Below, piece by piece: positions 1-18,437 of a DNA stretch of 32,000 bases. The notes under the pieces are model-generated. The model did not search any database, was not told the DNA's origin, and worked only from the letters and a program-made list of their open reading frames with translations. Numbering within the stretch: the stretch's first letter is position 1; each line of letters begins with the position of its first letter. The stretch lies in assembly GCF_000021865.1 (NCBI RefSeq), contig NC_014034.1, positions 1,350,001 through 1,382,000 on the forward strand, in the 5' to 3' direction. The DNA is from Rhodobacter capsulatus SB 1003. GTDB lineage: Bacteria; Pseudomonadota; Alphaproteobacteria; Rhodobacterales; Rhodobacteraceae. A program made the translations under genes and the position numbers.

Positions 1-12
1 CGCGGCGGCTCG

Positions 13-1398
13 ATGGCGCTGGAAACTCTGGCGCAGCGGGCGCAGGCGGCGCTTGGCGGCACGCTGCGCGGGCAAGGCGCCTCGATAGCGCTGTTGGAGT
101 TTTCCGGCCCGCCCCCCGAGGAGGACAAGATCCGCGCCTTTCTGAGCGCCACGCCGCAATGCCATTTCACCCTCACCTGGGGCACGGGCGAGACCGAGGC
201 GCAGGCGATCAAGGCGGCGCGAGACCGGCAGTTTTCGCAGCTTGCCACGGTGGTGCTGCCTGCGATCATGGCGGGGGTGCGCCCCTGTGCGATCGATCAC
301 ACGCGGCCCGGCACGATCAGCGATTTCGACCTCAAGGAGCAGAAGGAACGTTTCCTTTGTGCCTCGGTCGCGGACCGGCGCAAGATCGGTCGGGTCGGTC
401 GGCCGCAATTGTTTCGCAAACGCCAGCCGCAACCGCCGCAAAGTTTCGAGGACATCGCGCCCGAGGACGCCCCCGGCCTCAAGCCAAATGTGCGGGGCAA
501 GATTGCGGTGATCGTCGCCGATGGCATGGGGGGCGGCGATCTTGCAAAGGCCTATGGCACCGACACCGCAGGGTTCAGCACTGCGATGGCGGCGTTTCGG
601 GCGCGTCTGGCCGAGGCGATCGAAGATTGGGCTAGCGCCGAGGGGCTGATTTACACCGACAAGGCGGGCGTGGCCCATGCAAGGGTCGATGTGCTGATGT
701 GGGGCGGCGATGACATGACCTTTGTCGTGCCCGCTTCGCATGTGCTGGGGTTTCTGGCGGCGCTGCAGGGGGTGCTGGGCGCGCCCTTCGACAAGGACAA
801 GGGGACGGCGCGGTTCGGGCACCGCATCGGCTGCGTGATCGCGCAGCGCAAGACGCCGATCCGGCTTTTGAAGAAACTGGCCGGCAGCGCCGAGGCGGCG
901 TTGCGCGATGCGGTGACGCCCGAGATGCGCAAGGCGGGGGTGTCGGTGGTCTCGCTTGACGTGTTCGAAAGCGCGCCTTTGCCCTTTGCCTCGATCCTCG
1001 ATCATCGCCGCACCGTGTATGGGCAGGGCTATCGCTCGGGCGCGGATGCGGTCTTGCTGTCGCATGTCGCCAAGATGGCGGCGGCGCTGCGGGAGCTGGA
1101 CGACGAGGAAGGGGCGATCCTGAAGATGTCGCAGATTTATCGGCTGCTCGATGTCGCGCGGCTGTCACGGCGGGACCTGTGCAGCAAGGCGGCAGATGAG
1201 GCGATTGCCGAGGCGATGAAGGGGCATTTCGAGCGGGTGAAGGGCACGCCACCCGATATGGCCGCGTGGGAAAATGGCTGGACCGGGCAGGCCTCGCGCG
1301 GGTTGGCGCTGCTTCTGGCGCAGGTGGCGCAACTGCAACCCTATGCGCAACCCTTTACCGACGAACGCGCCCGCGTTCTTTCGGAGGCCGTGCAATGA
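13..1398 (+). CDS. cas10: Cas10-like type III large subunit (Palm/cyclase part); N-terminus may continue upstream of the window
   Basis: The frame is open back to nt 1. Motifs KIAVIVADGMGGGD and VLMWGGDDMTFVVP (GGDD codons 703-714), followed by a helical tail (MSQIYRLLDV), reproduce the Cas10 Palm2 + D4 pattern. LLEFSG near the N-terminus resembles the Palm1 strand. The stop overlaps the ATG of the next RAMP gene (ATGA at 1395-1398). No HD motif is seen in the visible part. Confidence 0.7.
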   Translation: MALETLAQRAQAALGGTLRGQGASIALLEFSGPPPEEDKIRAFLSATPQCHFTLTWGTGETEAQAIKAARDRQFSQLATVVLPAIMAGVRPCAIDHTRPGTISDFDLKEQKERFLCASVADRRKIGRVGRPQLFRKRQPQPPQSFEDIAPEDAPGLKPNVRGKIAVIVADGMGGGDLAKAYGTDTAGFSTAMAAFRARLAEAIEDWASAEGLIYTDKAGVAHARVDVLMWGGDDMTFVVPASHVLGFLAALQGVLGAPFDKDKGTARFGHRIGCVIAQRKTPIRLLKKLAGSAEAALRDAVTPEMRKAGVSVVSLDVFESAPLPFASILDHRRTVYGQGYRSGADAVLLSHVAKMAAALRELDDEEGAILKMSQIYRLLDVARLSRRDLCSKAADEAIAEAMKGHFERVKGTPPDMAAWENGWTGQASRGLALLLAQVAQLQPYAQPFTDERARVLSEAVQ

Positions 1399-3041
1399 CC
1401 GCGCCACTTGTGTTTGATGTCACGCTGTCGCTCAAGGCACCGTTCCTGTTTCCCGGCCAGGATCCCGGTCGGTTCGGCTATGACCGGGTCGCGCTGCGCG
1501 ATCTGGACGGTCGGCCGATCATTCCGCAAGACCAGATCAAGGGGCTGATCCGGCATGGTCTGACGATCATGGGCGAGACCGAGCTGGTCGAGGGGCTGAT
1601 GGGCAAGGGCTCGGCCGATGCGCGCAAGGACAGCGGCGGGGCGTTCGAGCCCGCCAAGGGGCGGATGTTCCTGACCGATCTGCGCTGCACGATCGAGCCC
1701 GATCTGCGCTCGACCGACTACCACCGGGTGCAGATCGACGACGAGAGCGGGGCGGCGAAACAGGGGCATCTGTTGCGGATCGAGCAGGTCTTTGCGCCCG
1801 AACGGGAGGTTGCCTTCAGCGGGCGGATCACCCTCTTTCCGACGGCGAAAGCGCCCGATGCGCAGGCGCTTGCTCTGCTGCTCGCGGCGGCACTGCAGTG
1901 CAAGCGCCATATCGGCGCCATGGCCTCGATCGGTTTTGGCGAGGTCAGCGGCTGCTCGGTGGAGCCGGCCCTGGAAGCCGAAGAGGCCTGCAAGTTGCCG
2001 GCCGATCCGGTCGGGCGGTTCCTGTGGCGGTTCCGCGTCGATCGGCCCTATCTGGTCGATGCGATCCGCACCGACAACGGCTATATCGGCCAGCCGACGA
2101 TTCCGGGCGGGGCGCTGAAGGGGCTGGTGGCGCGCTGTGCCGAGATGCGCGGCAACCCTCTCGATGCCCAAAGCCTGTCCGACACCGTTTTCGGCCATGC
2201 CACGCAACATGTGGCTCAGGCACTGCCGCTCTCGGTGGTCTGTCTCAAGGAAAAGGGTGCCGAGACCTGCCGCGATCTGGCGGGGAAGGGCGCTTTGCCC
2301 GATGGCGTGACCTTGCAGATCGACTGGAAGGCGGTTCACGAGGCGGCCTGTGTCGCGGGTTTCAAGCACTGTCTTGCGCCGCCGCCGCGCCATGTCGAGC
2401 GGGTCCACACGCAGATCGATGCGACAACCGGGGCGGCGCAGGATGAGAACCTGTTTTCGACCACCGCTGTGGTGCCGGGGAACGATGTGTTCACGGCCCT
2501 CGTCGATACCTCGGCGCTGAGCGCAGAAAATGCCCGCGCCGTGTTGAGTGCGCTTTGCGCGCCGATGCCGGGATTGGGTCGCACCGATGCCCGGGTGGAG
2601 CCGATCGACTTCGTGACGGACAAGGCACCTTCTCCGGTGACGGGCACGGTTGCGCTGGTCCTGCAAACCAAGGCCTGGATCGAGGTGGATCCGGCGCTGC
2701 TGCGTCACGATCCGCTTGCGGCCTATGCGCCCGCGTTCAAGGCCTTCTTGCCGAATTCGACGCTTCTCGAGGTTCATGCGGCTCAGGAATTGCTGGGCGA
2801 CTATCTGGCACGGCGGTTCACGGGCCAAAGTGGCTACATGCCTTGGCTGGTCACCAGTCGGGGGTCGGTTTTCGTGCTCGATGTGGCGCCGAGCGATCAG
2901 GCCGAACTGGCGGCGCTGCAGCGCAAGGGGCTTTGTTCGGCGACGCGGGACGGCACCGCGCTTGACTGGCAAAGCTGCCCCTTCGTCGCGGAAAACGGCT
3001 ATGGCGCATTCCTCCTCTCATCGGTCGGGGGTTCTCGATGA
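1395..3041 (+). CDS. Two-RAMP fusion protein (Cas7-like N-terminal domain + Cas5/Csx10-like C-terminal domain), 548 aa
   Basis: ATG 1395 overlaps the cas10 stop. First RAMP: IIPQDQIKGLIRHG (about nt 1518-1559), RVQIDDESGAAKQGHLLRIEQV, and G-rich loop IGAMASIGFGEV. Second RAMP: TIPGGALKGLVAR (about nt 2097-2135), HTQIDATTGAAQDENLFSTTAV, and tail GSVFVLDV...ENGYGAFLL, typical of Cas5-family (Csm4/Cmr3/Csx10) C-termini. The Cas7 versus Cas5 assignment of each half is inference. Confidence 0.7.
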   Translation: MTAPLVFDVTLSLKAPFLFPGQDPGRFGYDRVALRDLDGRPIIPQDQIKGLIRHGLTIMGETELVEGLMGKGSADARKDSGGAFEPAKGRMFLTDLRCTIEPDLRSTDYHRVQIDDESGAAKQGHLLRIEQVFAPEREVAFSGRITLFPTAKAPDAQALALLLAAALQCKRHIGAMASIGFGEVSGCSVEPALEAEEACKLPADPVGRFLWRFRVDRPYLVDAIRTDNGYIGQPTIPGGALKGLVARCAEMRGNPLDAQSLSDTVFGHATQHVAQALPLSVVCLKEKGAETCRDLAGKGALPDGVTLQIDWKAVHEAACVAGFKHCLAPPPRHVERVHTQIDATTGAAQDENLFSTTAVVPGNDVFTALVDTSALSAENARAVLSALCAPMPGLGRTDARVEPIDFVTDKAPSPVTGTVALVLQTKAWIEVDPALLRHDPLAAYAPAFKAFLPNSTLLEVHAAQELLGDYLARRFTGQSGYMPWLVTSRGSVFVLDVAPSDQAELAALQRKGLCSATRDGTALDWQSCPFVAENGYGAFLLSSVGGSR

Positions 3042-5665
3042 AACATCTCAGAAGATACCGCCTCGAATGGACGGTGCTGACGCCGCTGCATGTGGGGGCG
3101 GGGCAATCCGAACTGCGTGCGCATGACGAGGAAGACGCGTCCGAAGTGGCGCTGATCGCCCGCGATCATGCGGGCAAGCCCTGGATTCCGGGCAGCACGA
3201 TCAAGGGGGCGCTGGGAGCGACCTGCACCGATGTAAAGGTGCGGCTGTTCGGCAAACCGCATGAAAAGGGATCGCAGCAGGCCCGCGGTACCCTGACTTT
3301 TTCCGGGGCGCGTTATGTGTCGAAAGCGGGCAGCAGCGCTAGTTTCGAACTCGCCCAAACCAGTGTCGCCGTAGGCACCGGCGTTGCGGCGGCCAACAAA
3401 CTCTATCGGCGCGATTTCGTGCCCGAAGGGGTGACCTTCACCTCCGATATCGACGTTGAAAGCGGCGACGAACCGACGGTGCAGGCCGATTGCGCCGCGC
3501 TTGAAACGCTGCTTGCGCTGGCAGCCTCGTCCGAGGGGCTGAACCTCGGGGCCAACAAGGCCGATGACCTTGGACGGCTGCAGATCACCCGCATCGAGCG
3601 TGCCGAGAGCCGCTTTGGCCCGACCGGCTGGACCGCACAGACCTTTGCCCCGCACACGATCGCCGCCTCAGCCCCGGTCCGGGCCCCGCTCTTCGGTCTG
3701 CGCATGGTTTGCCCCGGCCCGTTCCTCTCGAAGGGCGGGCAGACGGACAACGAAACGCAGCCGCTGATGGATGCTGCGGGCAAGGCCCCCCGCATCATGG
3801 GGACGGCGGTTTCCGGGGCGCTGCGCAAACGCGCCGAATGGCTTTGGGCGCTGCACCTGCATCGCGGTGGTGGTGCCGAGATGAAAAGCTGCAAGACCTC
3901 GGCCGGACCGCGCGACCTTGATCCTGTCCAGCGCCTCTTCGGCTACGAAGGCCGCCGCGGCCTGTTGCAGGTCTCGCCGCGCAATGTGTCGGCCAAAGGA
4001 TCCTGCCAGATCCCCGGCGTCAGTCTCGATGCGATGACCGCCGCGCCTCGTGATGGGCTCTTGTTCTTTTACCACGCCCATCACGGCGTCACCTTCGATC
4101 TGTCCATCTCCACCCGAGCCGACCTTGACGCAGCCGAGACCAATCTTTTCGACTTGCTCAAGGCTGATCTGGAGGCCAATGGCCTCAAGCTTGGCATGGG
4201 CACCACGAAAGGCTTCGGGTGGTTTTGCTCCGATCAAGACCCTATCCTGAAGCACTATTCCGAAAAACAGACGGAAGCGTTGAAGCTCAAATCGAAAGAG
4301 GATCCCGCGGACCATTACGCCGAAGCGGAATTGCCATCGAACCTCGTGACCATTCCCTACCGTCTCAGCCGGATCGACCCGAACGTGATACAACTCCCGG
4401 AGCAACGGGTCTCGGATCGCTTCTCGAACCATGCGCTGTTGTCGAAGCCGATGCCCGCTGCCGCCTCGGGCCATATCGATCTGGTGTGGCATGTCGAAAC
4501 CCCGGTTCTGGTCGCGGCGCAGACGCATGACCATACCAAACCGCCCAAGGATGTGCCTTTCCAGAAGATCGGAGATACCTTCGCCATTCCCGGTTCTACG
4601 ATCAAGGGCATGTTGCGCGCGGAACTGGAGCGCCGGGTAAATGCCCGCGCCTATAGAATTATCGAAAACCTGCTTGCAATCACTGACGACCCCGAGGCGG
4701 AAAGGCCGCATCTCGATGCGAAGAAGCAACTGGCCGCTTTCAAGGCGCATCGGCCGGATGTGAACGAAAACTACACTCCTGATTTCGCCGAAGCGCTCTT
4801 TGGCTTCGTGCGCGAACCCGAAAGCGACGACAAAAGCCGCAGTCGCCATGAAGCCCTGCATCTCAAGGCGCGTATCTCCTGTGGCATGGCTTGGCTGGTG
4901 TCGGAGTACGACGCCGACAAATCCAGAGACGAACTCTACGTCATCGCGGCTGCCGAGCCGCGCCCGATCTCGAAGTTCTACGATCACTTCGGTCGCAAGG
5001 CCTATCTTGTGGACAACGCGTCGGCCGCCGATGTGGTGGCGCGTTTGAAAGCCGCAGAAAGGAAGCTCGACAAATACGCCTCCCCCCTGAAATTGCTTCA
5101 TCCGAAACAAGGGCAAAACCTTCTCTTTGCGCAGCGCATCTATCTGCACAACATGACCGAAGCAGAAATCGGAGCCTTCCTGACCGTGCTCACGCTTGAT
5201 TTCACCCTGCGCAACCGCTTCCTCATCGGACGGGCCCGGGCGTTCAATGCGGGCAAATGCTTCCCGGCGAAGATCAAACTGACATTGACGCCGAACGATG
5301 CCGGGGCAGATTACCCGGCAAGGGGCGGCAGCAAAGCCGATATGCGGATGATCGGACAATCCGCAACGCCCTTCCTGTCTGCCTTCGGAAAATTCGTCAA
5401 CTCTGGCGAAGATCCGAGCACCGCGCGAGACCCGGCTCTCGCACGGTCGATGGGGTTTGCCGCCAAAGAGTTCAATGCCGCGCATGACCCGCTTTTCGGG
5501 GATTATCTGCGCAAGCGTTCGCGCCTCGATGACGGCAAGATCTATTACCAGCAGACGAGTGACGACCCGAAGAACCGGAATTTCTCCGCTTCGGACCGCC
5601 AAAAGGCCTTCGAGGCGAACAATGGCCGTCTGGCCGCCGTGTTGAAAAAGACATGGCGGGACTAG
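3038..5665 (+). CDS. Three-RAMP (Cas7-like x3) fusion protein, 875 aa, with a ~130-aa non-RAMP C-terminal tail
   Basis: ATG 3038 overlaps the upstream stop (ATGA). There are three copies of the RAMP helix motif: WIPGSTIKGALGA (nt 3182-3220), IMGTAVSGALRKRA (3794-3832) and AIPGSTIKGMLRAELE (4583-4620). Each is followed by an LFG-type strand (LFGKPHEKG, QRLFGYEGRRGLLQV, ALFGFVREP) and a G-rich loop (LGANKADDLGRL, LGMGTTKGFGWF, IGRARAFNAGKCF). Confidence 0.75.
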   Translation: MKHLRRYRLEWTVLTPLHVGAGQSELRAHDEEDASEVALIARDHAGKPWIPGSTIKGALGATCTDVKVRLFGKPHEKGSQQARGTLTFSGARYVSKAGSSASFELAQTSVAVGTGVAAANKLYRRDFVPEGVTFTSDIDVESGDEPTVQADCAALETLLALAASSEGLNLGANKADDLGRLQITRIERAESRFGPTGWTAQTFAPHTIAASAPVRAPLFGLRMVCPGPFLSKGGQTDNETQPLMDAAGKAPRIMGTAVSGALRKRAEWLWALHLHRGGGAEMKSCKTSAGPRDLDPVQRLFGYEGRRGLLQVSPRNVSAKGSCQIPGVSLDAMTAAPRDGLLFFYHAHHGVTFDLSISTRADLDAAETNLFDLLKADLEANGLKLGMGTTKGFGWFCSDQDPILKHYSEKQTEALKLKSKEDPADHYAEAELPSNLVTIPYRLSRIDPNVIQLPEQRVSDRFSNHALLSKPMPAAASGHIDLVWHVETPVLVAAQTHDHTKPPKDVPFQKIGDTFAIPGSTIKGMLRAELERRVNARAYRIIENLLAITDDPEAERPHLDAKKQLAAFKAHRPDVNENYTPDFAEALFGFVREPESDDKSRSRHEALHLKARISCGMAWLVSEYDADKSRDELYVIAAAEPRPISKFYDHFGRKAYLVDNASAADVVARLKAAERKLDKYASPLKLLHPKQGQNLLFAQRIYLHNMTEAEIGAFLTVLTLDFTLRNRFLIGRARAFNAGKCFPAKIKLTLTPNDAGADYPARGGSKADMRMIGQSATPFLSAFGKFVNSGEDPSTARDPALARSMGFAAKEFNAAHDPLFGDYLRKRSRLDDGKIYYQQTSDDPKNRNFSASDRQKAFEANNGRLAAVLKKTWRD

Positions 5666-5952
5666 ACGATCCAGTAGTTCCCCGGCGGCTCGATGGGGGC
5701 GGCGTCGTCGTAGGTGCGGGTGCGGGTTTCGCCGCTGGCGCCGATGGCATAGACGCGCAGGCTGTCGCCGGGGGCAAGTTCGGCCGCGACGCGTTGGGCC
5801 AGCGCCGCCGCGCGCTGCTCGCTCAGCCGCGCCTCGAAGACCGAATATTGCACCCGCGTCGCGGCCCCTTCCAAAATCCGCGCCACCCGACGCCGCTTGC
5901 GGTCTTGCGACACGTCATAGGTGAAGACCATCAGCATCTCGGCGCGCGGCAT
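5662..5952 (-). CDS. cas2: CRISPR-associated endoribonuclease Cas2
   Basis: MLMVFTYDVSQDRKRRRVARILEGAATRVQYSVFEARLS is the canonical Cas2 N-terminal ferredoxin-fold signature. Start taken at ATG 5950-5952 (alternative Met at 5937). The stop overlaps the stop of the convergent RAMP gene at the palindromic CTAG (5662-5665). Confidence 0.85.
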   Translation of the reverse strand: MPRAEMLMVFTYDVSQDRKRRRVARILEGAATRVQYSVFEARLSEQRAAALAQRVAAELAPGDSLRVYAIGASGETRTRTYDDAAPIEPPGNYWIV

Positions 5953-6236
5953 GGCAGACCCTTTTCGGTGCAGATTTCGGGCCTCAGTCTGCCGCGAAAC
6001 GGGGGGCTGCGAAAGCCCTTGCCGGGCGGGCGGCCCTGCGGCGGTCTGTCGTGGCGCGGGGCAATCTTGACGGTGGACAGGACGGATTTCGCCTGCCAGT
6101 TTGAACTTGAGAGGCGGAAAATCGGGCAAAATCGCCGATTCACCGTTGGAAACCCTGCCATGACCTTGAAGTCACAGGATAAAGGAGGAAAAACACGCAG
6201 CAAAACCGGGCTTGCAAGGGCTGTTTCGGAGTGTCG

Positions 6237-6299
6237 GGCACATCACGGTTGGAAAGCGGACCAGAAAGCGCTTTCGGGTCTTGGGTTTGCAGAGGGTAA
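6237..6299 (+). promoter_or_regulatory. CRISPR leader, proximal conserved block (copy 1)
   Basis: These 63 nt lie immediately 5' of the first repeat. They are 61/63 identical to 8585-8647, which lies 5' of array 2. Confidence 0.6.
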
Positions 6300-6475
6300 G
6301 CCCAGACACCTCTCCCGCCAGTAAGCGGATTGAGACACCCAGAACAGGTGTTTGAGCGGCCCACCCGCGCCCAGACACCTCTCCCGCCAGTAAGCGGATT
6401 GAGACGAATGACAGCAACGTACAGCATCGTTTGCCTTTGCCCAGACACCTCTCCCGCCAGTAAGCGGATTGAGAC
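6300..6475 (+). CRISPR. CRISPR array 1: 3 repeats, 2 spacers
   Basis: Identical 37-nt repeats GCCCAGACACCTCTCCCGCCAGTAAGCGGATTGAGAC at 6300-6336, 6369-6405 and 6439-6475. Spacers are 32 nt (6337-6368) and 33 nt (6406-6438). The internal hairpin is CCGC-CAGTAA-GCGG. Plus orientation is inferred from the 3' ATTGAGAC (resembles the AUUGxxAC 8-nt handle of Cas6-processed crRNAs) and from the conserved leader on the left. Confidence 0.95.
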
Positions 6476-6525
6476 ATGCCCTATTCAACGAGGGCGGCGC
6501 CACGGGACGGCAATCCTTGGCGAGT

Positions 6526-8504
6526 TCAGTAGTCCTGCAGCTGCGGCAGGTAGGGGACCGTTTCCGGGCTGCGGCAGTGGCGGGCGAGCGCGCGGGCCTC
6601 TTCGAGCATGATCCGGCGCAGGGCGTGGCGCTGTCCGGTCTGGCTGGAGCGGATCACCCGTTCCAGCGCCTCCTCGTAGCCGGTGATCAGCGCGCGCCGA
6701 CCGGGGGTGAGGAGGCGCAGGCTGTCGCCCTGCGGCTCGAACATCTCCTCGCGCAGGCGGCGGCGGTTGAAGAGGCTCACCGCCAGCCCCTCGGAGAGGG
6801 TGGCGCGGAACACCTCCATCAGGTCATAGACGGCGGCGTCGCCCCGGTCCTGCGCCTGATGCAGCACGCCAAAGCCGGGGTGCAGCCCCGCGCCGATCAG
6901 CGCGGCGCGGATGTCGCGGGCCAAAAGCGCGGTCAGGTAATTGATCGCGGCGTTGAGGGGCGTTTTCGCCGGGCGTTCGCACAGGAACGGCCCCTTGTGC
7001 GCGGTGCAAAGCCGCGCCAGCGCGGGCCAGTAGATCCGGGCGGCCCGCCCCTCATGGCCGCGCAAGGTGTCCAGATCGGGCATCGGTGCGGCAAGGCCCC
7101 GGATCGCGCGGCCAAGGGCGGCGATGGCGCGGTCCACCTCGGTCGCCTTGGCGGAGCGGTTGAGCACGGCAAGCCGCGCGCGCTGGTTGCGCAGCCGCGC
7201 CCCGACCAGAACCCGCGCCAGCGCCAGACGCCGTTCGGGATGCAGCACAAGCGCGGCCTGCGCCAGCTGCAGCTGCGCCTCGGCGGGCTGCGGCGGGGCA
7301 AGATAGCCCTGCGTCTTGCCATGGCCATCGAGAAAGGCAAGCGTGGTGTCGGTGGCCAGCGCATGACGCCAGACCGGGTCATCGACCACGGCGCCCGGGC
7401 CCAGCTCGATCCGGTTCACCCGCGCGGGCGGCAGCGACAAAAGCAGGCTGCCACCGCCATCGAGCACGGCGAAACTTTCGGCGCGCAGGCTCAGGCGGCG
7501 CTCGGGCTCGACCAGATAAAGCACCCGCGCCCCCGGATCGTAACCCGCCGCCACCGCCTCGGCCGTGGCCGCGTCGGCCTCGGCCAGTTCGCGCATCACG
7601 GCGCTGGCGTCGGGGTCGGGCTCGTCTGGGGCGGGCAGCACGAGCGAGCGGACGAAAAGCTGGCCCAGAAACTGAAAGCCGCGATCGAACCCCACCACCC
7701 GCGTTTCGCGCGAGACCATGCGCAGGCCGTGACCGGCGACGAACTCCTCGGCGAGCGCGCGGGCTTCCTCGGCCCCGGCCTCGCTGCGGGCGAGGATGAC
7801 GAAATCATCGGCAAAGCGCACGATCCGGGCGGCGCCGCTGTCGAAACGGTCGTCGAGCCCGTCGAAGAAGAGGTTCGACAACAGCGGCGAAAGCGGCGAG
7901 CCCTGCGCCAGACCGCGCCCCGGCGTGCCAAGCTGGCCCGAGCCATGCGCAAGCCAAAGCCCGACAAGGTCGATCAGCGCGCGGGTGCCGGGGGCGGGAT
8001 CGAGCGCGGTATCGAGCGCCTCGAGCACCGGGTCATGCGGGATCCGGTCAAAGGCCTTTTCGATATCGGCCTCGACCACCCAGGTGTAGCCCATCCGCCG
8101 CAGGGCCGAGATCCGGTCCACCGCCATCGCCACCGAACGGCCGGGGCGGTAGCCGTAGCTGTCGGGGGAAAACAGCGGCTCGAGCCGGGGGTCAGCGCGG
8201 CGGCGACGGCGGTTTGCACGATCCGGTCGGAGACGGCGGGGATGGCGAGGCGACGGGTGCCGCCGTCGGGCTTGGGGATCTCATGCAGGCGCAGCGGCCG
8301 GGGTGCGTAATTTCCGTTGCGCAACAGCCCCGACAGCCGCGCGATCGCCGCCGCCCCCTTGGCGGCAAAGGCTGCGATGCTTTGCCCGTCGCCCCCCGCA
8401 CATCCGTTGTTGCGCCGCACCTTTTCGAATGCCAAGGTGAGGGCATGGGGGTCGGAAATCTGGCCAAACAGGCCCGAAAATCGGCCTTCGTCGTTGGAAA
8501 TCAT
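6526..8504 (-). CDS. cas1: Reverse transcriptase-Cas1 fusion; reading frame interrupted by an apparent 1-nt frameshift near 8187-8191 (possible pseudogene or sequencing error)
   Basis: The N-terminal piece runs from ATG 8502-8504 (MISNDEGRFSGLFGQISDPHALTLAFEKVRRNNGCAGGDG...GGTRRLAIPAVSDRIVQTAVAAALTP) and carries RT motifs 0-2. The downstream frame continues PRLEPLFSPDSYGYRPGRSVAMAVDR...SPLLSNLFF...IVRFADDFVIL, with the FADD catalytic box around 7804-7815. The C-terminal half is Cas1-like (TLRGHEGRAARIYW...NAAINYLTALLARDI...GLHPGFGVLHQAQDRGDAAVYDLMEVFR). Confidence 0.85.
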
Positions 8505-8584
8505 GCCATGCCCCTGCGGGATAAGGGAAAAAGCGAGGTGAGAGACACAGGAAACCAGAAAATCGGGCCCGAGTCGAGGGATGC

Positions 8585-8647: not shown

Positions 8648-8971
8648 GCCCAGACACCTCTCCCGCCAGTAAGCGGATTGAGACTCTTCCATCGAGCACT
8701 TGCAACCAAACACCCCGTGCCCAGACACCTCTCCCGCCAGTAAGCGGATTGAGACCTCCTTTCTCCACCCCGCGGGGTGTGCGCACGTGGCCCAGACACC
8801 TCTCCCGCCAGTAAGCGGATTGAGACGGGCGTATTCACGGCCCACCAACGCCCCCCATGCGGTGCCCAGACACCTCTCCCGCCAGTAAGCGGATTGAGAC
8901 GGAAGATTTTCGGTCATCTTACGCGATCCGCATAGCCCAGACACCTCTCCCGTCCATAAGCGGGTCAGCCG
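8648..8971 (+). CRISPR. CRISPR array 2: 5 repeats (last degenerate), 4 spacers
   Basis: Same 37-nt repeat at 8648-8684, 8719-8755, 8790-8826 and 8864-8900. A degenerate terminal copy lies at 8935-8971 (GCCCAGACACCTCTCCCGTCCATAAGCGGGTCAGCCG). Spacers are 34, 34, 37 and 34 nt. Degeneration at the right end supports a leader on the left and plus orientation. Confidence 0.95.
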
Positions 8972-9807
8972 AGGGGCGTCAGCCGCACCCTTCCCGCGCC
9001 GATGGTGGTGTCGGCGCCGATGTGCAGCGCCTCGGCCAGCGTGAGCAGGCGGCGCAGCTCGGGCGGGGGCGCGGAAAAGGCGATGCGGCCGGAAAAGCCC
9101 GGACGCGGTTTCGTGCCCCGCGCCAGCGCCCGCCGTTCGCCCGCAACGGCCGGGGGGGCGGCGCGCAGCGCCTCGGCCAGCTCCGCCTCGGGCAGATCGA
9201 GCGCAAAGCCGTGCCACTGCGCGATCCCCTTGGCGCGTTTGGCAAATCCTGTCAGCAGCGAGGCGGGATCGAGGCCCAGCCCCGCGTGATCGGCGCGCAG
9301 GCGCTGGATGATCGGGGTTTGCGTGCGCAAAGCCAGCGCCCCCGCAGGCGGGGGGGAAGCCGTCAGTTGCGCATGGGACACGGCGGTGATCTGCATCGGC
9401 ACCCGGCCCGCGCGGCCCAGATCAAGGCCGCCGCGCAGCCCGGCAATCAGCGCGGCGCGAAACTCGGGCGCCCAGTCGCAGGCGGCCCCGAAAAGGCGCA
9501 GCGTGATGGTCAGATCCGCGCCTTGCGCATCGGCGCGCAGCACGAAAGGTTTGGGCAGCTCGAAGCCTGGGTTCAGCGCGCCTTGCGGGTTGTGAAACAG
9601 GTCGTAAGCGCAGGGCGGATCATAGGGGCAGGGCGCTCCCGCCAGCGCCTCGGGCGAGGCGGAAAGCGCCAGCGCATGGCCCATCGCGCCGCGCACCCGG
9701 CCCAGTGTGGCCGTGCCCGCCGCAAGCCCGCCATGCCCCGCGATCTGAACCACAAGGTCGCGGGCACACAGGGCGGGAAGGAAGTCCTTGAGCGAAATCG
9801 GCTGCAT
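8965..9807 (-). CDS. cas6: Cas6-family pre-crRNA endoribonuclease (RAMP)
   Basis: Start taken at MQPISLKDF (ATG 9805-9807). LGRVRGAMGHAL...CPYDPPCAYDLFHNP...LPKPFVL matches the N-terminal pattern of the Cas6 family seen with RT-Cas1 systems. The C-terminal GFSGRIAF...LHIGADTTIGAGRVRL is the Cas6 G-rich loop. The stop (8965-8967) lies inside the degenerate terminal repeat. Confidence 0.7.
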   Translation of the reverse strand: MQPISLKDFLPALCARDLVVQIAGHGGLAAGTATLGRVRGAMGHALALSASPEALAGAPCPYDPPCAYDLFHNPQGALNPGFELPKPFVLRADAQGADLTITLRLFGAACDWAPEFRAALIAGLRGGLDLGRAGRVPMQITAVSHAQLTASPPPAGALALRTQTPIIQRLRADHAGLGLDPASLLTGFAKRAKGIAQWHGFALDLPEAELAEALRAAPPAVAGERRALARGTKPRPGFSGRIAFSAPPPELRRLLTLAEALHIGADTTIGAGRVRLTPLG

Positions 9808-9985
9808 GGCGCAGTCTTTCGCCGCGCGGAGGCAAAGATCAAGCCCGGCGTGTTTGCCGCGGCGAAAGGCCATTGCGAGGGCGGCAAAATGCGCTCAGGA
9901 AGGGGGAGAAAAGAAAAACCCCCGACCGGGGTCGAGGGCCTGCTAGCGGCGTACCGCTTCGCGTGGATGTTCGCGAGGTAGCAGA

Positions 9986-10630
9986 TTGAGCGAAAAAGAT
10001 CAACAGGAAACAAGGGCCGCGCGCGCGGCGCTTTATATCGACGGGTTCAACCTTTATCACGCGATCGACCGGCTGGGGCAGCCGCATCTGAAATGGCTCA
10101 GCTATTGGCGGCTCGGTCAGGTGATCTTGCCGCAAAAGACGCAAAAGCTGGTGCGGGTGGTCTATTGCACGGCGTTTTATCCCGGTTCGGCGGGCAAGCG
10201 CTGGCGGCACGAGCAGGTGATCGCGGCGCAGCGGGCCGAGGGGGTGGAGGTGGCGCTGGGCCATTACGTGCATGAGCGGATGATGTGTCGCAGTTGCGGC
10301 GATCGCTGGGAGAAGCCGACCGAGAAGGCGGGGGATATCAACCTCGCCATCCATCTGATGCATGACGCGTTCGAAGATGTGTTCGACCATGCCTATCTGC
10401 TGACGGCCGATTCCGATCAGGCGGCGACGGCGGCGATGTTCGCGCGGCACTTTCCCGAGAAGCGGCTGACGACGGTGGCGCCGCCCGGCCGCGACCCTTC
10501 GGTGCATATCCTGCGCCACGCCTCGGGCGGCAAGATCAAGCTCAATGCCGGGCATCTTGAGCGCGCGGTGATGGGGGCCACGGTCGGCAAGGCGCGGCGG
10601 CCCGACGAATACGCCCCGCCCGAGGGCTGA
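9986..10630 (+). CDS. NYN/LabA-like (PIN-related) predicted RNase
   Basis: ALYIDGFNLYHAID at the N-terminus, CRSCGDRWEKPTEKAGDINLAIHLMHDA and LLTADSD together form the NYN (DUF88/LabA) motif set. TTG start at 9986, with no in-frame ATG upstream of the domain. Confidence 0.75.
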   Translation: MSEKDQQETRAARAALYIDGFNLYHAIDRLGQPHLKWLSYWRLGQVILPQKTQKLVRVVYCTAFYPGSAGKRWRHEQVIAAQRAEGVEVALGHYVHERMMCRSCGDRWEKPTEKAGDINLAIHLMHDAFEDVFDHAYLLTADSDQAATAAMFARHFPEKRLTTVAPPGRDPSVHILRHASGGKIKLNAGHLERAVMGATVGKARRPDEYAPPEG

Positions 10631-10633
10631 GGC

Positions 10634-11104
10634 TCAGCGGCCTTGCGTCAGTTCAAGCCAGACCTGTGCCATCGCCTCGGCATCCGGCCCGGCCCGGTGC
10701 GGATGCGGCAGCGTGGCGAGCAGATCCTGCGCGCGGCCGAGCGCCTCTGCGCCGAAAGTATCGCTGACCGCATCGTCGAAATGCAAAAGCTGCACCGGGC
10801 GGCGCAGCAGCATCGTCAGCCATTTGCCGTCGAATTCGGGGCAGTCGGAAAGGACATGAGCCCCAAGCCGCGCTTCGACCGCCTCGGCGACGATCTCGGC
10901 CGCGGGGGCGGTGTGCAGTTGTTCCCGCGCGATGCCGTGGATCTCTGCCGAACGCGGATCCCAGTCGGCCTCGCTCCAGCCCGGGCGAGGGTGAATGAGG
11001 CAAGACCATGTCTCGATGCCAAGGGAGGAGAGCCGCGACAACCCGATTTCGATAGGCCAACCCGTCAGGCTCGAGGCTTCGATGTCGATGAAGATCGGGG
11101 TCAT
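10634..11104 (-). CDS. DEDDh (DnaQ-like) 3'-5' exonuclease
   Basis: FIDIEASS (DxE), SDCPEFDGKWL (D) and HRAGPDAEAM (H-x4-D) give the DEDDh motif order. Convergent with the NYN gene with only 3 nt between the stops. Confidence 0.75.
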   Translation of the reverse strand: MTPIFIDIEASSLTGWPIEIGLSRLSSLGIETWSCLIHPRPGWSEADWDPRSAEIHGIAREQLHTAPAAEIVAEAVEARLGAHVLSDCPEFDGKWLTMLLRRPVQLLHFDDAVSDTFGAEALGRAQDLLATLPHPHRAGPDAEAMAQVWLELTQGR

Positions 11105-11707: not shown

Positions 11708-13828
11708 TCATGGCTCTCGCCCGAAATCCTCGCGCGCCGAGGGCGCCTCTGGCATCCGGGGCGCCACCAGCCCCGCCCGCAAAATCTCCTCGGCATCGGG
11801 CGAGGCCCGCGGCCCCGCAAGCGACAGCAATTGCGTGCCGGTGCGGGGGACCGCCGAAAGTCGCCTGATCGCCACGGCGAGGGTCGGGACAAGGTCGTGA
11901 TCTGTCTTTCTGGCCGGCTCCGGCAGCTTGCCGAGGCCCCGCGTGCTGCCGGCGACCATGCCGGTGCGCACCGGCTCATCGGCCCAGAGCGCATATTCGT
12001 AGCCGCAAATCGTGCCCGTCCGATCCCGGTGCGCGAGCAGCCAAAGATCGGGGCGGGGGTGCAGCAGATCCTCGAACACCACCGGCTGACCTTGCGGATC
12101 GTCCTTCGCCCGCCGCGCAAAGTGTTCATGCAGGGCGCGGACCATATCGAAGGTCATCCGCTTGACCGTGATCCGTTCGGGCGCAATCTCGCGCGCGGAA
12201 TGGAGCGCCGGGCGCAGCTGCGGGAACAGGTCAAGCGGGGCGGCTCGGGTCAGGCCGCGCCGCAGGTCGGTTTCGGACCGGGCCCGTTCGCGCAGGGCGG
12301 CGTTAGCGGCGCGGAGCAGGGTTTTGCGGATGTCCGAGGGCAGGTCGGCAAGATCATCCGCAATCCTTTCCGTCCAGTCCTCGGCCTCATGCATTTTCTC
12401 CGCACGATCCTTGCGGCGGGCGGTGCGGCTCAGGTCGTTGCGATGCATTTCCTCGGCCCGGGCGGCAAGTGCCGCCGTGATCGGCGGGGGCAACACCGGA
12501 GGCCCGGACATTGCCGCCGCCCGCCGAAGCCGGACGCGCAGCAGTGCCCCGGTCGGATCGGGCGGCATCAGCGTGGTAATGCCGCGATCTGCCGCAGCGC
12601 GCATCAAAGCGCGAGAAATCGGGGTATCGTCGGTGATGTCGAGCGTGGCCCAGCCCCGCGCCGCGATCATCTTCAGTGCGATCTCGATGCGGGGCCGGAT
12701 CGCCCCCGGCCCACCCATGCGGATGACCTCGCCCAGATCGGTCACCCAGCCGCCATCGCGCAGGAAGACCATGCGGCGAGGGGCGGCGAGGTTGATGACG
12801 GCGATCTGATCCCTCAACTGCAGATCGTCTAGCAAAGCCATGTGCAAGGCACCGACCTGCGCGCGGGCGCCTGCGGGGCGACGCCCGATCCGGGCCGATT
12901 TTCCGCGGCCATAGCCCCGGATCGTCAGCCGTGTTTCGCCCGGTGGCATCGGCGTGGGCGTCATGTGTTGATCAGGCAGCGGCCCGAGCCGCGCCACAAG
13001 CTCCGCATGGCTCTCCCCCGGGATCAACCGGCTGACCGCCACCGCCTCGGACCCGCCGCGCAGATGGATCACCGCGCCCCGCGGGGTCTTGCGATATCCA
13101 AGCCCAAATCGTCCAAGGCGCGCCAGCACCTCGGCCCATGTCTTCGCGCTTTCCACTCCCTGCCGGAGCGCTGTCATCGCCTCGATGGGTAACCGCAGGT
13201 GCAGCGGGAGGTGCCCGCTGATGCGCGCCTGATCGATATCACCTTGCCGCAGGTCGGCTTGGACCTTTCGTCGTGCCTGTTTCAATGCCCAATCTTCGGC
13301 TGGCCGAGGCACGAGCCGCACTGCCGGGACGGGGCCGGTGTCGTCGATCTCGACCCGAAAACGGCCATTGTCGCGTGCCCATCCCTGCAGGAGTTCAATC
13401 TCGCGGCAGGCCAACTCAAGCCGGGTGTAATCCTGCCACCTGTCCACCAATCGTCCGGTGATCGGATGGACCCGGCTATATATCGTGTGGACGTGGATGT
13501 GCGCGGTGTCGCGATGCACGCCGATCACGGCTTCATGCCCCTCCGCCCCGAGCCGTGCCATCGCATGTTTGGCCGCCACCCGCGCCTGATTATCGCTCGG
13601 GACTTCGCGCGCGGGCCATGACAACACAATGTGGACATGGGCCGTGCGCGGGTTGCGGCGATGCCGCTGGCAGGTCGCGGCCATCTGCGCCGCCGCGACG
13701 TCGATGCCCCCAGGGATGCACGGGGTGTCGATGTAAGTCGCTTTCGCAGCAACATAATCGATGCGGGCCGCGAGCCCATGATCAGCGGACCGGATTTCTT
13801 GCCTAAGAGCGATGATTTTGCCGATCAT
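11708..13828 (-). CDS. MobA/VirD2-family relaxase with long C-terminal extension (706 aa)
   Basis: The N-terminal 150 aa carry HVHIVLSWP and the histidine triad HRDTAHIHVHTIYSRVHP, typical of the relaxase/mobilization nuclease domain. The remaining ~550 aa were not assigned. Confidence 0.85.
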   Translation of the reverse strand: MIGKIIALRQEIRSADHGLAARIDYVAAKATYIDTPCIPGGIDVAAAQMAATCQRHRRNPRTAHVHIVLSWPAREVPSDNQARVAAKHAMARLGAEGHEAVIGVHRDTAHIHVHTIYSRVHPITGRLVDRWQDYTRLELACREIELLQGWARDNGRFRVEIDDTGPVPAVRLVPRPAEDWALKQARRKVQADLRQGDIDQARISGHLPLHLRLPIEAMTALRQGVESAKTWAEVLARLGRFGLGYRKTPRGAVIHLRGGSEAVAVSRLIPGESHAELVARLGPLPDQHMTPTPMPPGETRLTIRGYGRGKSARIGRRPAGARAQVGALHMALLDDLQLRDQIAVINLAAPRRMVFLRDGGWVTDLGEVIRMGGPGAIRPRIEIALKMIAARGWATLDITDDTPISRALMRAAADRGITTLMPPDPTGALLRVRLRRAAAMSGPPVLPPPITAALAARAEEMHRNDLSRTARRKDRAEKMHEAEDWTERIADDLADLPSDIRKTLLRAANAALRERARSETDLRRGLTRAAPLDLFPQLRPALHSAREIAPERITVKRMTFDMVRALHEHFARRAKDDPQGQPVVFEDLLHPRPDLWLLAHRDRTGTICGYEYALWADEPVRTGMVAGSTRGLGKLPEPARKTDHDLVPTLAVAIRRLSAVPRTGTQLLSLAGPRASPDAEEILRAGLVAPRMPEAPSAREDFGREP

Positions 13829-15822: not shown

Positions 15823-16010
15823 CGCCACCCCGACAGCAATTGACACCCCGCGACGTTAGGAATGATCTTGCGATCTGTCGAGGCGATTCCCTCGGGGGTC
15901 GATCACCAGACCTTTGGAGCACCTATGCGTTTTCTTGGCAGTCGCACCCGATTTCCCTTCCCCGATCCGATGTGGTCCGGGCAGGCCCTTTTTGTTTTGG
16001 AGGATTTTGC

Positions 16011-18437
16011 GTGACAGGAGTGACCGATACCCGTCGCCTTGTGTTTTACGACGCTGAGGGGGCACTGTATTTTCCGGTGCGTGACGGCGGCACGGGGAAG
16101 TCGATCTTCAAGATCAAGCCCAAGGGGGCCAGCAACCGCGCCGAGGACGCCATCCATCTTGAGGATTGGCTTGACGTCGCGCGGGCGATGCTGATCGACG
16201 GTCTGGCCGCGCGCTGCAGGGCCTTGTCCGGTGGACCGATCAATTACCTGCGGTTCGGGGCGCAAAAGCTGGTGCGCTACGAACTCGACCCGGAGTTGGC
16301 GGAAGCCTTGGGTATTGCGCCCACGGGTGTTGCCGGAGAGGAGACATCCGAAGTCTCCCGCGCCGCCATCGAGGCCGCGATGGATGCTTTTGACGCTTGG
16401 CGCCAGACCGGCGCGCAGGATGAGATCTTCGGCGCCTTTGGTGAGCCGCGCGACTATTGGGTGCGCTCGACGCGGGACCGGGAAAACCGGGTCTATCCGA
16501 CGAAACCCCTCGTTGGCTACCTGCGCGGCAAGACCGATCTGAGCGGCGGTTGGGGGCAACGGAACGACGCGGCGTCCTTCCTGCACAATGCAGGCTTCAT
16601 CATCGTCGATGCCGAGGATCGGCCCGTGCCCCCGCCCGAGCGTTACGACCACCTGATCCGCGATGCCGAGCGTGTCCGGCTGTGCGCGCGCAACTATCAC
16701 ATCGAGCCGGGGCGGGAGCAGGGGGCGGCCGAGGTCTCGATCCGCTCCGGCGATCTGGCCCGCGAAATGGGGCTGGAAAACGCCTTTCCGACCATTTGTG
16801 ACGCGCTGGGCGGCGCGAAATTCCAGACGCTTTGCGCCCTGCCGCCGCCCCGGTTCACCACGCCGAACCCGAGCAGCACCACAACCTTCACCTATGCCCT
16901 TGCCGCAGATGGGATCACGCCCACCATGACCGCCCCCGATCAAGCCCCCGTTCCCCCCACCAACCTGATCCTTTACGGCCCGCCCGGCACCGGCAAGACC
17001 TATGCGACGGCCTGGGAGGCGGTGAAGCTCTGCCTTGGCGCGGCGGCCGATCCCCTGCGCGACGATCGCAAGGCATTGATGGCCGAATACAAGCGGCTCT
17101 GCGAGGAGGGCCGGATCGAGTTCACCACCTTCCACCAGTCGATGTCCTACGAGGATTTCGTGGAAGGGCTCAGGCCGGTGACGGACGAGGGCGGATCGGG
17201 CTTCCGGCTCACACCGCGCGACGGCATCTTCAAGGAGATCAGCCGCCGGGCTTCCACCCGCCCGGATGATGATTTCGACCTGCCCGAGATCGACCGCAGC
17301 CGCCCGATCTTCAAGCTGAACATGATCGGCAAGGGCTGGCGGCCCGGTTACGATGTCTCGATCGCGACGGGGCGGATCTATTGGCTGTTCGGCGGCAAGC
17401 TGGATTGGTCCGATCCCCGGTTCGAGGACAAAGAGGCACTCGCGGCCCGTTGGCGTGAAACCTATCCCGAAGCGACGCTCAACCATGCCAGCATCGGAGG
17501 TACGCATTATTTTCGTTACGGTGCAAAAATCGGCGATTACGTTGCGCTGACGCATGGGCTGGACAGGGTGTTCGCCTTCGGGCGCATCACCGGGGATTAC
17601 GAATATCGCCCCGATCTTGCCCGTCCGGAGGTGGAAGACAGCCCCAACAGCCGGACCGTGGACTGGCTCTGGTCTGATCCCGTGGGCGTCGAGAGGGCGG
17701 CTTTCTACTCCGGCGCCTTCAATCCTGCGCACCCGCTTTGCGTGCTGAACGACAGTTTCGACCACGATGCCTTCGAAGCCGCGATCTTCGGAACCAAGGG
17801 CATTGCCGAACCCCATGTCCTGATCATCGACGAGATCAACCGCGCCAACATTTCCAAAGTTTTTGGCGAACTGATCACGCTGCTCGAAGCCGACAAGCGG
17901 CTTGGAGCGGCAAATGAAATCCGTCTGCGGCTGCCCTATTCCGGGCGCAACTTCGGGGTGCCCGCGAACCTGCACATCATCGGCACGATGAACACCGCCG
18001 ACCGCTCGATCGCGCTTCTGGACACCGCGCTGCGTCGCCGTTTCACTTTCCGCGAACTCATGCCCGACGCCTCGGTTCTGCCTGTCGATTGCGGCGGAGT
18101 GAACTTGCAAAAGCTGCTTGCCACGCTGAACGCCCGCATAGAATACTTCTTCGACCGCGAGCATCAGATCGGCCACGCCTATTTCACCGCCTGCACCACG
18201 CGCGACGACGTGGCCGAGGTGATGCGCTTCAAGATCATCCCGCTTCTGGCGGAATATTTCTACGAGGACTGGGGCAAGGTCGCGGCCGTTCTGGGCGATG
18301 GCTCGGGGCGCCCCGAGCGGTTCCTGCGCGCGGTGCCTCTTGAGCCGCCGTTCGGCTTGGGCGAGGAGGACATCGACGACAAGAAGGTCAGCTGGCAGAT
18401 CCTCGAAACGTTCGACTTTGCCGATTGCGCCGCATGA
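16011..18437 (+). CDS. mcrB: McrB-family AAA+ GTPase subunit of a type IV restriction system, 808 aa
   Basis: GTG 16011 is preceded by GGAGGA (15999-16004). Motifs: Walker A LILYGPPGTGKT, FHQSMSYEDFVEG, Walker B LIIDEINRANISKVFGE, McrB signature GTMNTADRSIALLDTALRRRF. The ORF-track start at 15840 (TTG) would overlap the divergent regulator and is rejected. Confidence 0.85.
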   Translation: MTGVTDTRRLVFYDAEGALYFPVRDGGTGKSIFKIKPKGASNRAEDAIHLEDWLDVARAMLIDGLAARCRALSGGPINYLRFGAQKLVRYELDPELAEALGIAPTGVAGEETSEVSRAAIEAAMDAFDAWRQTGAQDEIFGAFGEPRDYWVRSTRDRENRVYPTKPLVGYLRGKTDLSGGWGQRNDAASFLHNAGFIIVDAEDRPVPPPERYDHLIRDAERVRLCARNYHIEPGREQGAAEVSIRSGDLAREMGLENAFPTICDALGGAKFQTLCALPPPRFTTPNPSSTTTFTYALAADGITPTMTAPDQAPVPPTNLILYGPPGTGKTYATAWEAVKLCLGAAADPLRDDRKALMAEYKRLCEEGRIEFTTFHQSMSYEDFVEGLRPVTDEGGSGFRLTPRDGIFKEISRRASTRPDDDFDLPEIDRSRPIFKLNMIGKGWRPGYDVSIATGRIYWLFGGKLDWSDPRFEDKEALAARWRETYPEATLNHASIGGTHYFRYGAKIGDYVALTHGLDRVFAFGRITGDYEYRPDLARPEVEDSPNSRTVDWLWSDPVGVERAAFYSGAFNPAHPLCVLNDSFDHDAFEAAIFGTKGIAEPHVLIIDEINRANISKVFGELITLLEADKRLGAANEIRLRLPYSGRNFGVPANLHIIGTMNTADRSIALLDTALRRRFTFRELMPDASVLPVDCGGVNLQKLLATLNARIEYFFDREHQIGHAYFTACTTRDDVAEVMRFKIIPLLAEYFYEDWGKVAAVLGDGSGRPERFLRAVPLEPPFGLGEEDIDDKKVSWQILETFDFADCAA

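Follow-up and report, generated by a model that had tools for sequence, protein, structure and literature searches.

Three coupled genes in Rhodobacter capsulatus SB 1003 probably encode a compact type III-D2 CRISPR-Cas effector

A stretch of 32,000 nucleotides (nt) of the Rhodobacter capsulatus SB 1003 chromosome (contig NC_014034.1, positions 1,350,001 to 1,382,000 of the forward strand; this whole stretch is referred to as the window) opens with three coupled genes for a type III CRISPR-Cas effector, which encode a Cas10 protein and two fused proteins of 548 and 875 amino acids (aa). These genes very probably encode the known type III-D2 effector in a compact R. capsulatus version that works by the mechanism proposed below. 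In a PDB-wide sequence search the best, and nearly the only, match of each window protein was the corresponding chain of 9WXH, 9WXI and 9WXJ, which show the type III-D2 complex as solved by cryo-electron microscopy (cryo-EM) (PMC13294483). Type III-D2 consists of Cas7x3, Cas7-5 and Cas10, has neither cas11 nor csx19 and is usually accompanied by CorA (PMC13294483; bioRxiv 10.1101/2022.06.13.496011; PMC12669027), and the 2025 classification shows it as the probable ancestor of type III-E (PMC12669027). The locus has these features: a Cas7x3, a Cas7-5, a CorA protein and a Cas10 without HD domain but with two Palm domains, a GGD[DE] motif and a helical C-terminal domain; no cas11 or csx19 profile matched any open reading frame (ORF) of the window or of the 10 kb upstream. 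A preliminary description of this DNA had seen in it an intermediate state between multi-subunit type III systems and the single-protein type III-E, reminiscent of a III-D variant or of rare type III subtypes but with a triple Cas7. The intermediate position stands, but the novelty does not because the published definition of type III-D2 has exactly this gene architecture. A name for the fusion intermediate between multi-subunit type III and Cas7-11 has existed since 2021, a cryo-EM structure followed in 2026, and the finding carries little weight as a discovery here.

The window has a GC content of ~66%. Frame 1 of its plus strand is open from nt 1 to a stop at 1398, and ORFs of 548 aa (1395..3041) and 875 aa (3038..5665) follow. 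Both junctions are ATGA overlaps ('caATGAcc' at 1395-1398 and 'cgATGAaa' at 3038-3041), as had been described. The gene that had been placed from nt 13 onward is a true coding frame, but it does not start there: the cas10 ORF exceeds the 5' edge of the window and its first 23 codons lie upstream. In contig L002 (an R. capsulatus chromosome contig with 0 mismatches to the window over 13,041 shared nt) cas10 starts 69 nt upstream of the window with MFLYLEGVNL... and is 488 aa in full length, so that the ATG at nt 13 encodes an internal methionine (M28). The upstream context, namely corA, the start of cas10 and a third CRISPR array, was read from this identical contig and lies outside the window. 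The effector genes and their domains are as follows.

nt 1..1398, plus strand: cas10 from codon 24 onward, 488 aa in full (HD-less; Palm1, linker, Palm2 and helical C-terminal domain; PADLOC, family profile, AlphaFold2)
nt 1395..3041, plus strand: cas7-5 (Cas7.1 at ~aa 1-190 and Cas5 at ~aa 205-548 with the Lid region; Pfam, PADLOC, profile)
nt 3038..5665, plus strand: cas7x3, 875 aa (three Pfam RAMP stretches, TIGR03986, profile, Foldseek)
nt 3038-3622, plus strand: Cas7.2, ~aa 1-195
nt 3680-4237, plus strand: Cas7.3, ~aa 215-400, followed by a linker
nt 4445-5272, plus strand: Cas7.4, ~aa 470-745, with a reduced insertion at ~aa 540-628
nt 5273-5662, plus strand: C-terminal extension (CTE) of Cas7x3, ~aa 746-875

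The first protein had been called a GGDD Cas10-like protein, and it matches Cas10 profiles (PADLOC Cas10, 3e-13; Pfam Cas10 palm2) and carries GGDD at nt 703-714, residues 258-261 of the full protein. The profile of its family matches 9wxh_B over the full length (E 1.3e-89). The AlphaFold2 (AF2) model (predicted local distance difference test, pLDDT, 85) shows a complete Cas10 that lacks HD and in which residues 355-487 form an all-helical domain. Its best fold match is the III-Dv Cas10 8s9t_C (TM score 0.63), followed by Csm1 and Cmr2; the PDB fold library ends in April 2026, apparently without 9WXH, and membership in type III-D2 is drawn from the sequence and profile searches. D197 and GGDD align with D286 and GGDE of 9WXH, and E346 aligns with E436; GGDD, D197 and E346 are invariant among the Cas10 homologues aligned. 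E6, N9, L10, S27, L30 and Q103 align with the residues of 9WXH that contact S-adenosylmethionine (SAM), E8, N11, L12, S29, L33 and Q186, and double mutation of E8 and Q186 in the solved III-D2 Cas10 abolishes synthesis (PMC13294483). The tyrosine within 'SQIYRLL' aligns with Y491. The Cas11-like five-helix bundle of 9WXH is the C-terminal domain of Cas10 (PMC13294483), and according to the model this domain is kept here as a predicted helical domain.

The 548-aa protein combines a Cas7 and a Cas5 domain, as had been proposed. Pfam RAMPs covers one stretch (residues 11-184), and in its second half the protein can be aligned with the Cas5 portion of 9wxh_C. Over nearly its whole length the Cas7-5 family profile matches this chain (E 1.1e-78; positions 4-573 of 575 against residues 3-601 of 635). 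D30 of Cas7.1 (nt 1482-1484) does not vary among 6 homologues and corresponds in the alignment to the catalytic D29 of the solved Cas7.1; judged by these alignments, the target RNA cleavage centre and the active site residues of Cas10 are conserved. The PADLOC profile PDLC01419 ('Csm3, III-A/III-D') matches the 548-aa protein at 1307 bits over 548/548 positions. The locus thus already lies within profile sets derived from the classification, since this profile was evidently built from the same or an identical protein.

The 875-aa protein has the three Cas7 domains that had been attributed to it, seen as three Pfam RAMP stretches and as a colinear profile match to 9wxh_D. This match (E 1.1e-33) runs in the blocks 7-394/20-459, 477-540/569-640 and 629-736/937-1080 and covers Cas7.2, Cas7.3 and both halves of Cas7.4. 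The helix motif (I/T)PG(S/G)x(I/L)KGxL had been counted five times in the two fused proteins. As written it occurs at 2 sites only, both in the 875-aa protein (IPGSTIKGAL at residue 50 and IPGSTIKGML at 517), but a relaxed pattern gives exactly five: residues 50, 253 (IMGTAVSGAL) and 517 of the 875-aa protein, and residues 43 (IPQDQIKGLI) and 236 (IPGGALKGLV) of the 548-aa protein. Shuffled sequence gives 0.0025 matches to the relaxed pattern. Cas7.2 E36 is invariant in the compact family and lies near the non-catalytic Q52 of the solved protein. In strain L001 (GCA_052362895.1) cas7x3 is called as 863 aa.

The closest described relative is the type III-D2 system of HyVt-522 (Gammaproteobacteria bacterium; 9WXH/9WXI/9WXJ; PMC13294483), which has the same three subunits in the same gene order, no cas11 or csx19, an adjacent CorA, a cas6 and a 37-nt repeat with an 8-nt tag. 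The catalytic aspartate of Cas7.1, the equivalent of Cas10 E436, GGD[DE] and the Palm1 contacts to SAM are kept in R. capsulatus. The two systems differ in size (488, 548 and 875 aa in R. capsulatus against 592, 635 and 1235 aa for the PDB chains, tags included). R. capsulatus also differs in its Cas7.4 insertion (~90 against ~300 aa), in the lack of the Cas7.3 zinc finger, in GGDD in place of GGDE and in a serine at the position of D307. Unlike HyVt-522, it has no toxin-antitoxin module that could be seen, and it has a frameshifted RT-Cas1/Cas2 adaptation module (RT, reverse transcriptase) and three mini-arrays. Pairwise identity between the two is low, and the matches are strong at the profile level only.

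More distant systems share the principle of fused Cas7 domains. The III-Dv system of Synechocystis (8S9T-8S9X) has a Cas7-2x protein, an insertion in its last Cas7 and an HD-less Cas10. It differs in its Cas7-Cas5-Cas11 triple fusion and in having Cas7-2x and Cas7-insertion as separate proteins, whereas in R. capsulatus Cas7.2 to Cas7.4 form one chain and Cas7-5 has no Cas11 and ends at the Cas5 C-terminal motif (548 aa against 791 aa for 8s9t_A). Type III-E Cas7-11 (gRAMP) and type III-I Cas7-11i also carry several Cas7 domains per polypeptide, but both have an internal Cas11; III-E lacks Cas10 and Cas5, and in III-I what remains of Cas10 lacks the N-terminal Palm, whereas the R. capsulatus Cas10 has both Palm domains and GGDD. 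The NCBIfam scores are weak and far below the cut-offs, with 28.7 bits for the III-I gRAMP family NF049957 (cut-off 800) and 13.4 bits for the III-E family NF041225 (cut-off 700).

The effector genes are flanked by a CorA gene upstream and by adaptation genes, CRISPR arrays and cas6 downstream. The CorA-family protein (600 aa; L002 6088-7890, outside the window) is encoded 650 nt upstream of cas10, matches PADLOC CorA (1e-128) and carries a GMN motif with a hydrophobic helix after it; a comparison with PDB sequences gave no match for it. CorA is an established receptor of SAM-AMP, the conjugate of SAM and AMP (PMC10600005; PMC13294483). Seven genes (corA, cas10, cas7-5, cas7x3, cas2, RT-cas1 and cas6) stand in the same order in a metagenome-assembled genome (MAG) of Paracoccaceae, at 33-63% protein identity. 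The features downstream of the effector are as follows.

nt 5662..5952, minus strand: cas2 (Pfam CRISPR_Cas2, 2e-18)
nt 6300..6475, plus strand: CRISPR array of 3 37-nt repeats (GCCCAGACACCTCTCCCGCCAGTAAGCGGATTGAGAC) with spacers of 32 and 33 nt; leader upstream at ~5953-6299
nt 6526..8506, minus strand: RT-cas1, frameshifted (Pfam Cas_Cas1, 5e-57; RVT_1, profile positions 63-202 only)
nt 8648..8971, plus strand: CRISPR array of 5 repeats, of which the last is degenerate (72% identity); spacers of 34-37 nt
nt 8965..9873, minus strand: cas6 (Pfam CRISPR_Cas6, 4e-9; PADLOC Cas6, 1e-22)
nt 9986..10630, plus strand: NYN-domain nuclease gene (Pfam NYN, 8e-6; PADLOC HEC-09, 7e-39)
nt 10634..11104, minus strand: DEDDh exonuclease gene (PADLOC Cas-associated DEDDh, 5.5e-9; Pfam RNase_T, 3e-3)

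A third small array (4 repeats) lies upstream of the window between corA and cas10 (L002 8158-8400). All three arrays have a common 37-nt repeat, and the same ~60-nt leader end stands in front of each of them. The repeat forms a hairpin, and after it comes ATTGAGAC, which is the 8-nt tag expected for the CRISPR RNA (crRNA). The idea of one array split by a 2.2-kb insertion was rejected, as the arrays that flank RT-cas1 are separate and each has its own leader copy. Plus-strand ORFs at 5653..6324, 6469..8310 and 8857..9981, considered as genes (one of them as a candidate Cas11), were likewise rejected as shadows of the minus-strand cas2, RT-cas1 and cas6.

The proposed mechanism is based directly on homology, domain order and the conservation of catalytic and ligand-contact residues, while stoichiometry, single-site cleavage, the messenger and CorA activation are taken over from the solved homologue. 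Cas6 would cut the transcripts of the mini-arrays at the hairpin base of the repeat, so that the 8-nt ATTGAGAC stays as a 5' tag. Single copies of Cas7-5, Cas7x3 and Cas10 would then assemble on one crRNA, with the tag held by Cas5 and Cas7.1 and with Cas7.1 to Cas7.4 forming the backbone along the spacer. On a complementary foreign RNA, Cas7.1 D30 and Cas10 E346 would make a single-site cut in the target, and a 3' anti-tag that is not paired with the tag would switch on the Palm domains (GGDD) of Cas10. Cas10 would most likely join SAM and ATP to SAM-AMP, perhaps also to SAM-AMP2, and SAM-AMP would open the CorA-family membrane protein, leading to growth arrest of the infected cell. We infer that signalling from SAM-AMP to CorA is the best supported because CorA is adjacent and no CARF or SAVED gene is present. 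The role of Cas11 would be filled by the helical C-terminal domain of Cas10 and not by a separate gene.

Several observations count against a functional III-D2 effector of this kind, and they are taken up here together with the alternatives on which they bear. The first alternative, a decaying mobile-element relic that has lost immunity, we consider unlikely, though it has several observations on its side. RT-cas1 is frameshifted at a homopolymer: its main ORF (6526..8133, 535 aa) holds the C-terminal half of the RT and Cas1 but not the N-terminal part of the RT, which lies in another frame (8187-8441, possibly starting near 8506). With an intact Paracoccaceae homologue, tblastn places residues 30-114 at 8187-8441 and residues 116-663 at 6529-8184, in a different frame, and the junction (8184-8191) falls at a run of five G (8187-8191). 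The arrays are tiny (2-4 spacers) with degenerate terminal repeats, and blastn of both window arrays against 50,697 phage records found no matching protospacer. In strain L001 cas10 is split into ORFs of 234 and 270 aa (L001 8537-10004), and in L001 and L003 the cas1 calls are shortened to a 356-aa Cas1 only. The locus may therefore be decaying, as the frameshift of RT-cas1, the tiny arrays and the one strain with a split cas10 suggest. However, cas10, cas7-5, cas7x3, cas2 and cas6 are intact here, with translational coupling and with conserved catalytic residues, and at least 96 index blocks of assemblies contain the same protein.

The second alternative accepts the same effector but gives it another messenger, a cyclic oligoadenylate or another nucleotide conjugate that is sensed by the CorA homologue. 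D307 of the solved Cas10, which contacts adenine and is essential for the enzyme (9WXH; PMC13294483), is replaced by serine (residue ~218) in the Rhodobacter clade, where the motif is GGDD and not GGDE; more distant GGDE members have aspartate at this position. In Cas7-5 there is no clear equivalent of the Lid residue W351 of 9WXH, which is needed for SAM-AMP2 in the solved III-D2 complex (PMC13294483). Because of these two positions the messenger is not certain, and the molecule sensed by the CorA of type III-D systems has been stated to be unclear (PMC12669027). Another messenger nevertheless seems quite unlikely since the Palm1 contacts to the methionine and adenine parts of SAM are kept, including the E8/Q186 pair, no CARF or SAVED effector was seen within 10 kb, and CorA is the SAM-AMP receptor in the systems cited above.

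The remaining differences from HyVt-522 lie mainly in Cas7x3. The large insertion (INS) that III-D2 typically has in its last Cas7 is reduced, with ~90 aa between the halves of Cas7.4 against ~297 aa in 9wxh_D, and the four-cysteine zinc finger of 9WXH Cas7.3 is absent (aa ~275-300). A VapBC-like toxin-antitoxin module, likewise typical of III-D2 loci, was not found either: there is no PIN or VapC domain among the Pfam matches of the genes within 10 kb on either side, small ORFs not having been searched individually. The compact clade of the Rhodobacterales could be a functionally distinct sub-variant of III-D2, marked by a Cas7x3 of ~850-930 aa with the insertion nearly lost and no Cas7.3 zinc finger, and by a Cas10 with GGDD and serine in place of D307. 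In such a sub-variant the helical CTE could take over binding of the duplex in a Cas11-like manner, and the chemistry of the messenger or its turnover (by the DEDDh nuclease) could differ from the solved system. We regard a functional distinction of this kind as improbable. Loci related to this one in Novosphingobium and Acetobacteraceae (L009 and L010) keep ~280 aa at the insertion site of Cas7.4, so the compact form is best seen as a reduction within the family. It is a rare form, shared by about 17-19 clusters (50% identity) in a set of 1.84 billion representatives, and there are also hundreds of relatives with two domains (Cas7-2x-like).

A distinct, undescribed type III subtype, in which an independent fusion state carries its Cas11 within the tail of the triple-Cas7 protein, is very unlikely. 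It would draw on the rarity of the compact form, on a protein 360 aa shorter than the solved Cas7x3 without big insertion or zinc finger, and on the tail itself (aa 746-875), which is predicted to be mostly helical and is of the size of a Cas11. But each of the three subunits is a full-length III-D2 homologue, gene order and CorA partner agree with III-D2 as well, and L009 and L010 connect the compact and solved forms as intermediates with a large insertion. The tail (nt ~5270-5662) had been put forward in the preliminary description as a candidate embedded Cas11, and this is unsupported, with a small probability left for a Cas11-like fold. No Cas11, Csm2 or Cmr5 profile matches it, and hmmscan of aa 737-875 against PADLOC and Pfam gave nothing at E up to 10; this negative is weak because the Cas10 C-terminal domain, which is Cas11-like in 9WXH, also matched nothing. 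The tail follows the last matched block of Cas7.4, exactly where the 155-aa CTE of the solved Cas7x3 is located, and that CTE contacts the guide-target duplex (PMC13294483). The AF2 model of Cas7x3, made from an 11-sequence alignment, is poor (pLDDT 55), a further point on the unfavourable side; in the tail pLDDT is <50, too poor for assigning a fold. The best Foldseek matches of this model are Cas7-11/gRAMP and III-Dv Cas7-2x, which are multi-Cas7 relatives only. The earlier statement that there is no separate Cas11 gene holds, as Cas11 profiles matched nothing in the window or the 2.5 kb upstream of it.

That separate genes were joined into the long ORFs by assembly errors or frameshifts has a negligible probability, as the same fused ORFs occur in complete genomes and in metagenome and Logan assemblies, with homologues at 30-85% identity in other genera. 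The 548-aa and 875-aa proteins are thus genuine fusions, as the preliminary description assumed: the same fused genes stand in one order in independent assemblies and in other taxa, namely in Pseudotabrizicola and in MAGs of Paracoccaceae, Novosphingobium and Acetobacteraceae. The order cas10, cas7-5, cas7x3 is common to five other loci.

The R. capsulatus locus would represent a naturally minimised III-D2 complex of ~1,900 aa in total, in which the large insertion and the zinc finger have proved dispensable in evolution. As Rhodobacter capsulatus is a genetically tractable host, signalling by SAM-AMP and CorA could be studied there natively.

The NYN and DEDDh genes next to cas6 mirror the pair of NYN nuclease and phosphodiesterase in the CorA type III-B locus of Bacteroides fragilis. 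In B. fragilis the NYN gene adjoins cas6 (PMC11346440), and phosphodiesterases of the NrN or DEDD kind are encoded in type III loci linked to CorA (PMC10600005). That locus resembles the one in R. capsulatus in having CorA, a small phosphodiesterase (NrN or DEDD), NYN by cas6 and RT-Cas1, and it signals by SAM-AMP; it differs in its six-subunit Cmr complex with a separate Cas11 (Cmr5), as opposed to the three-protein III-D2 complex. By analogy, the NYN nuclease may be an accessory protein (for crRNA 3' trimming) or a separate defence candidate, and the DEDDh protein is a candidate phosphodiesterase for degrading the signal molecule, although its association with the CRISPR system is uncertain. 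The NYN and DEDDh genes were not found beside the related loci L007 or L008, and their link to the CRISPR locus is not kept in the relatives examined. The presence of a DEDDh nuclease nearby deserves attention as no known SAM-AMP-cleaving enzymes were seen in type III-D CorA loci (PMC12669027). ARAGORN reports a 95-nt tRNA-Arg(ACG) at 10577-10671, across the ends of the NYN and DEDDh genes. This call is probably a false positive because Rfam finds no tRNA there at its gathering threshold.

The remainder of the window is taken up by a defence island that adjoins a MobA/VirD2 relaxase. The locus seems to be strain-specific because a collection with one genome per species gave no R. capsulatus match. 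The genes of the island lie as follows.

nt 11708-13828, minus strand: defence-island genes
nt 15840-19741, plus strand: defence-island genes
nt 23178-26378, plus strand: defence-island genes
nt 26580-30960, plus strand: defence-island genes

Among them are a McrBC-like pair (AAA_5 and McrC), a UvrD/GajB-like helicase and the type I Zorya genes zorA, zorB and zorC (PADLOC 1e-295, 9e-106 and 8e-184). A DRT reverse transcriptase (RT_UG17) with a SLATT gene is located upstream of the window.

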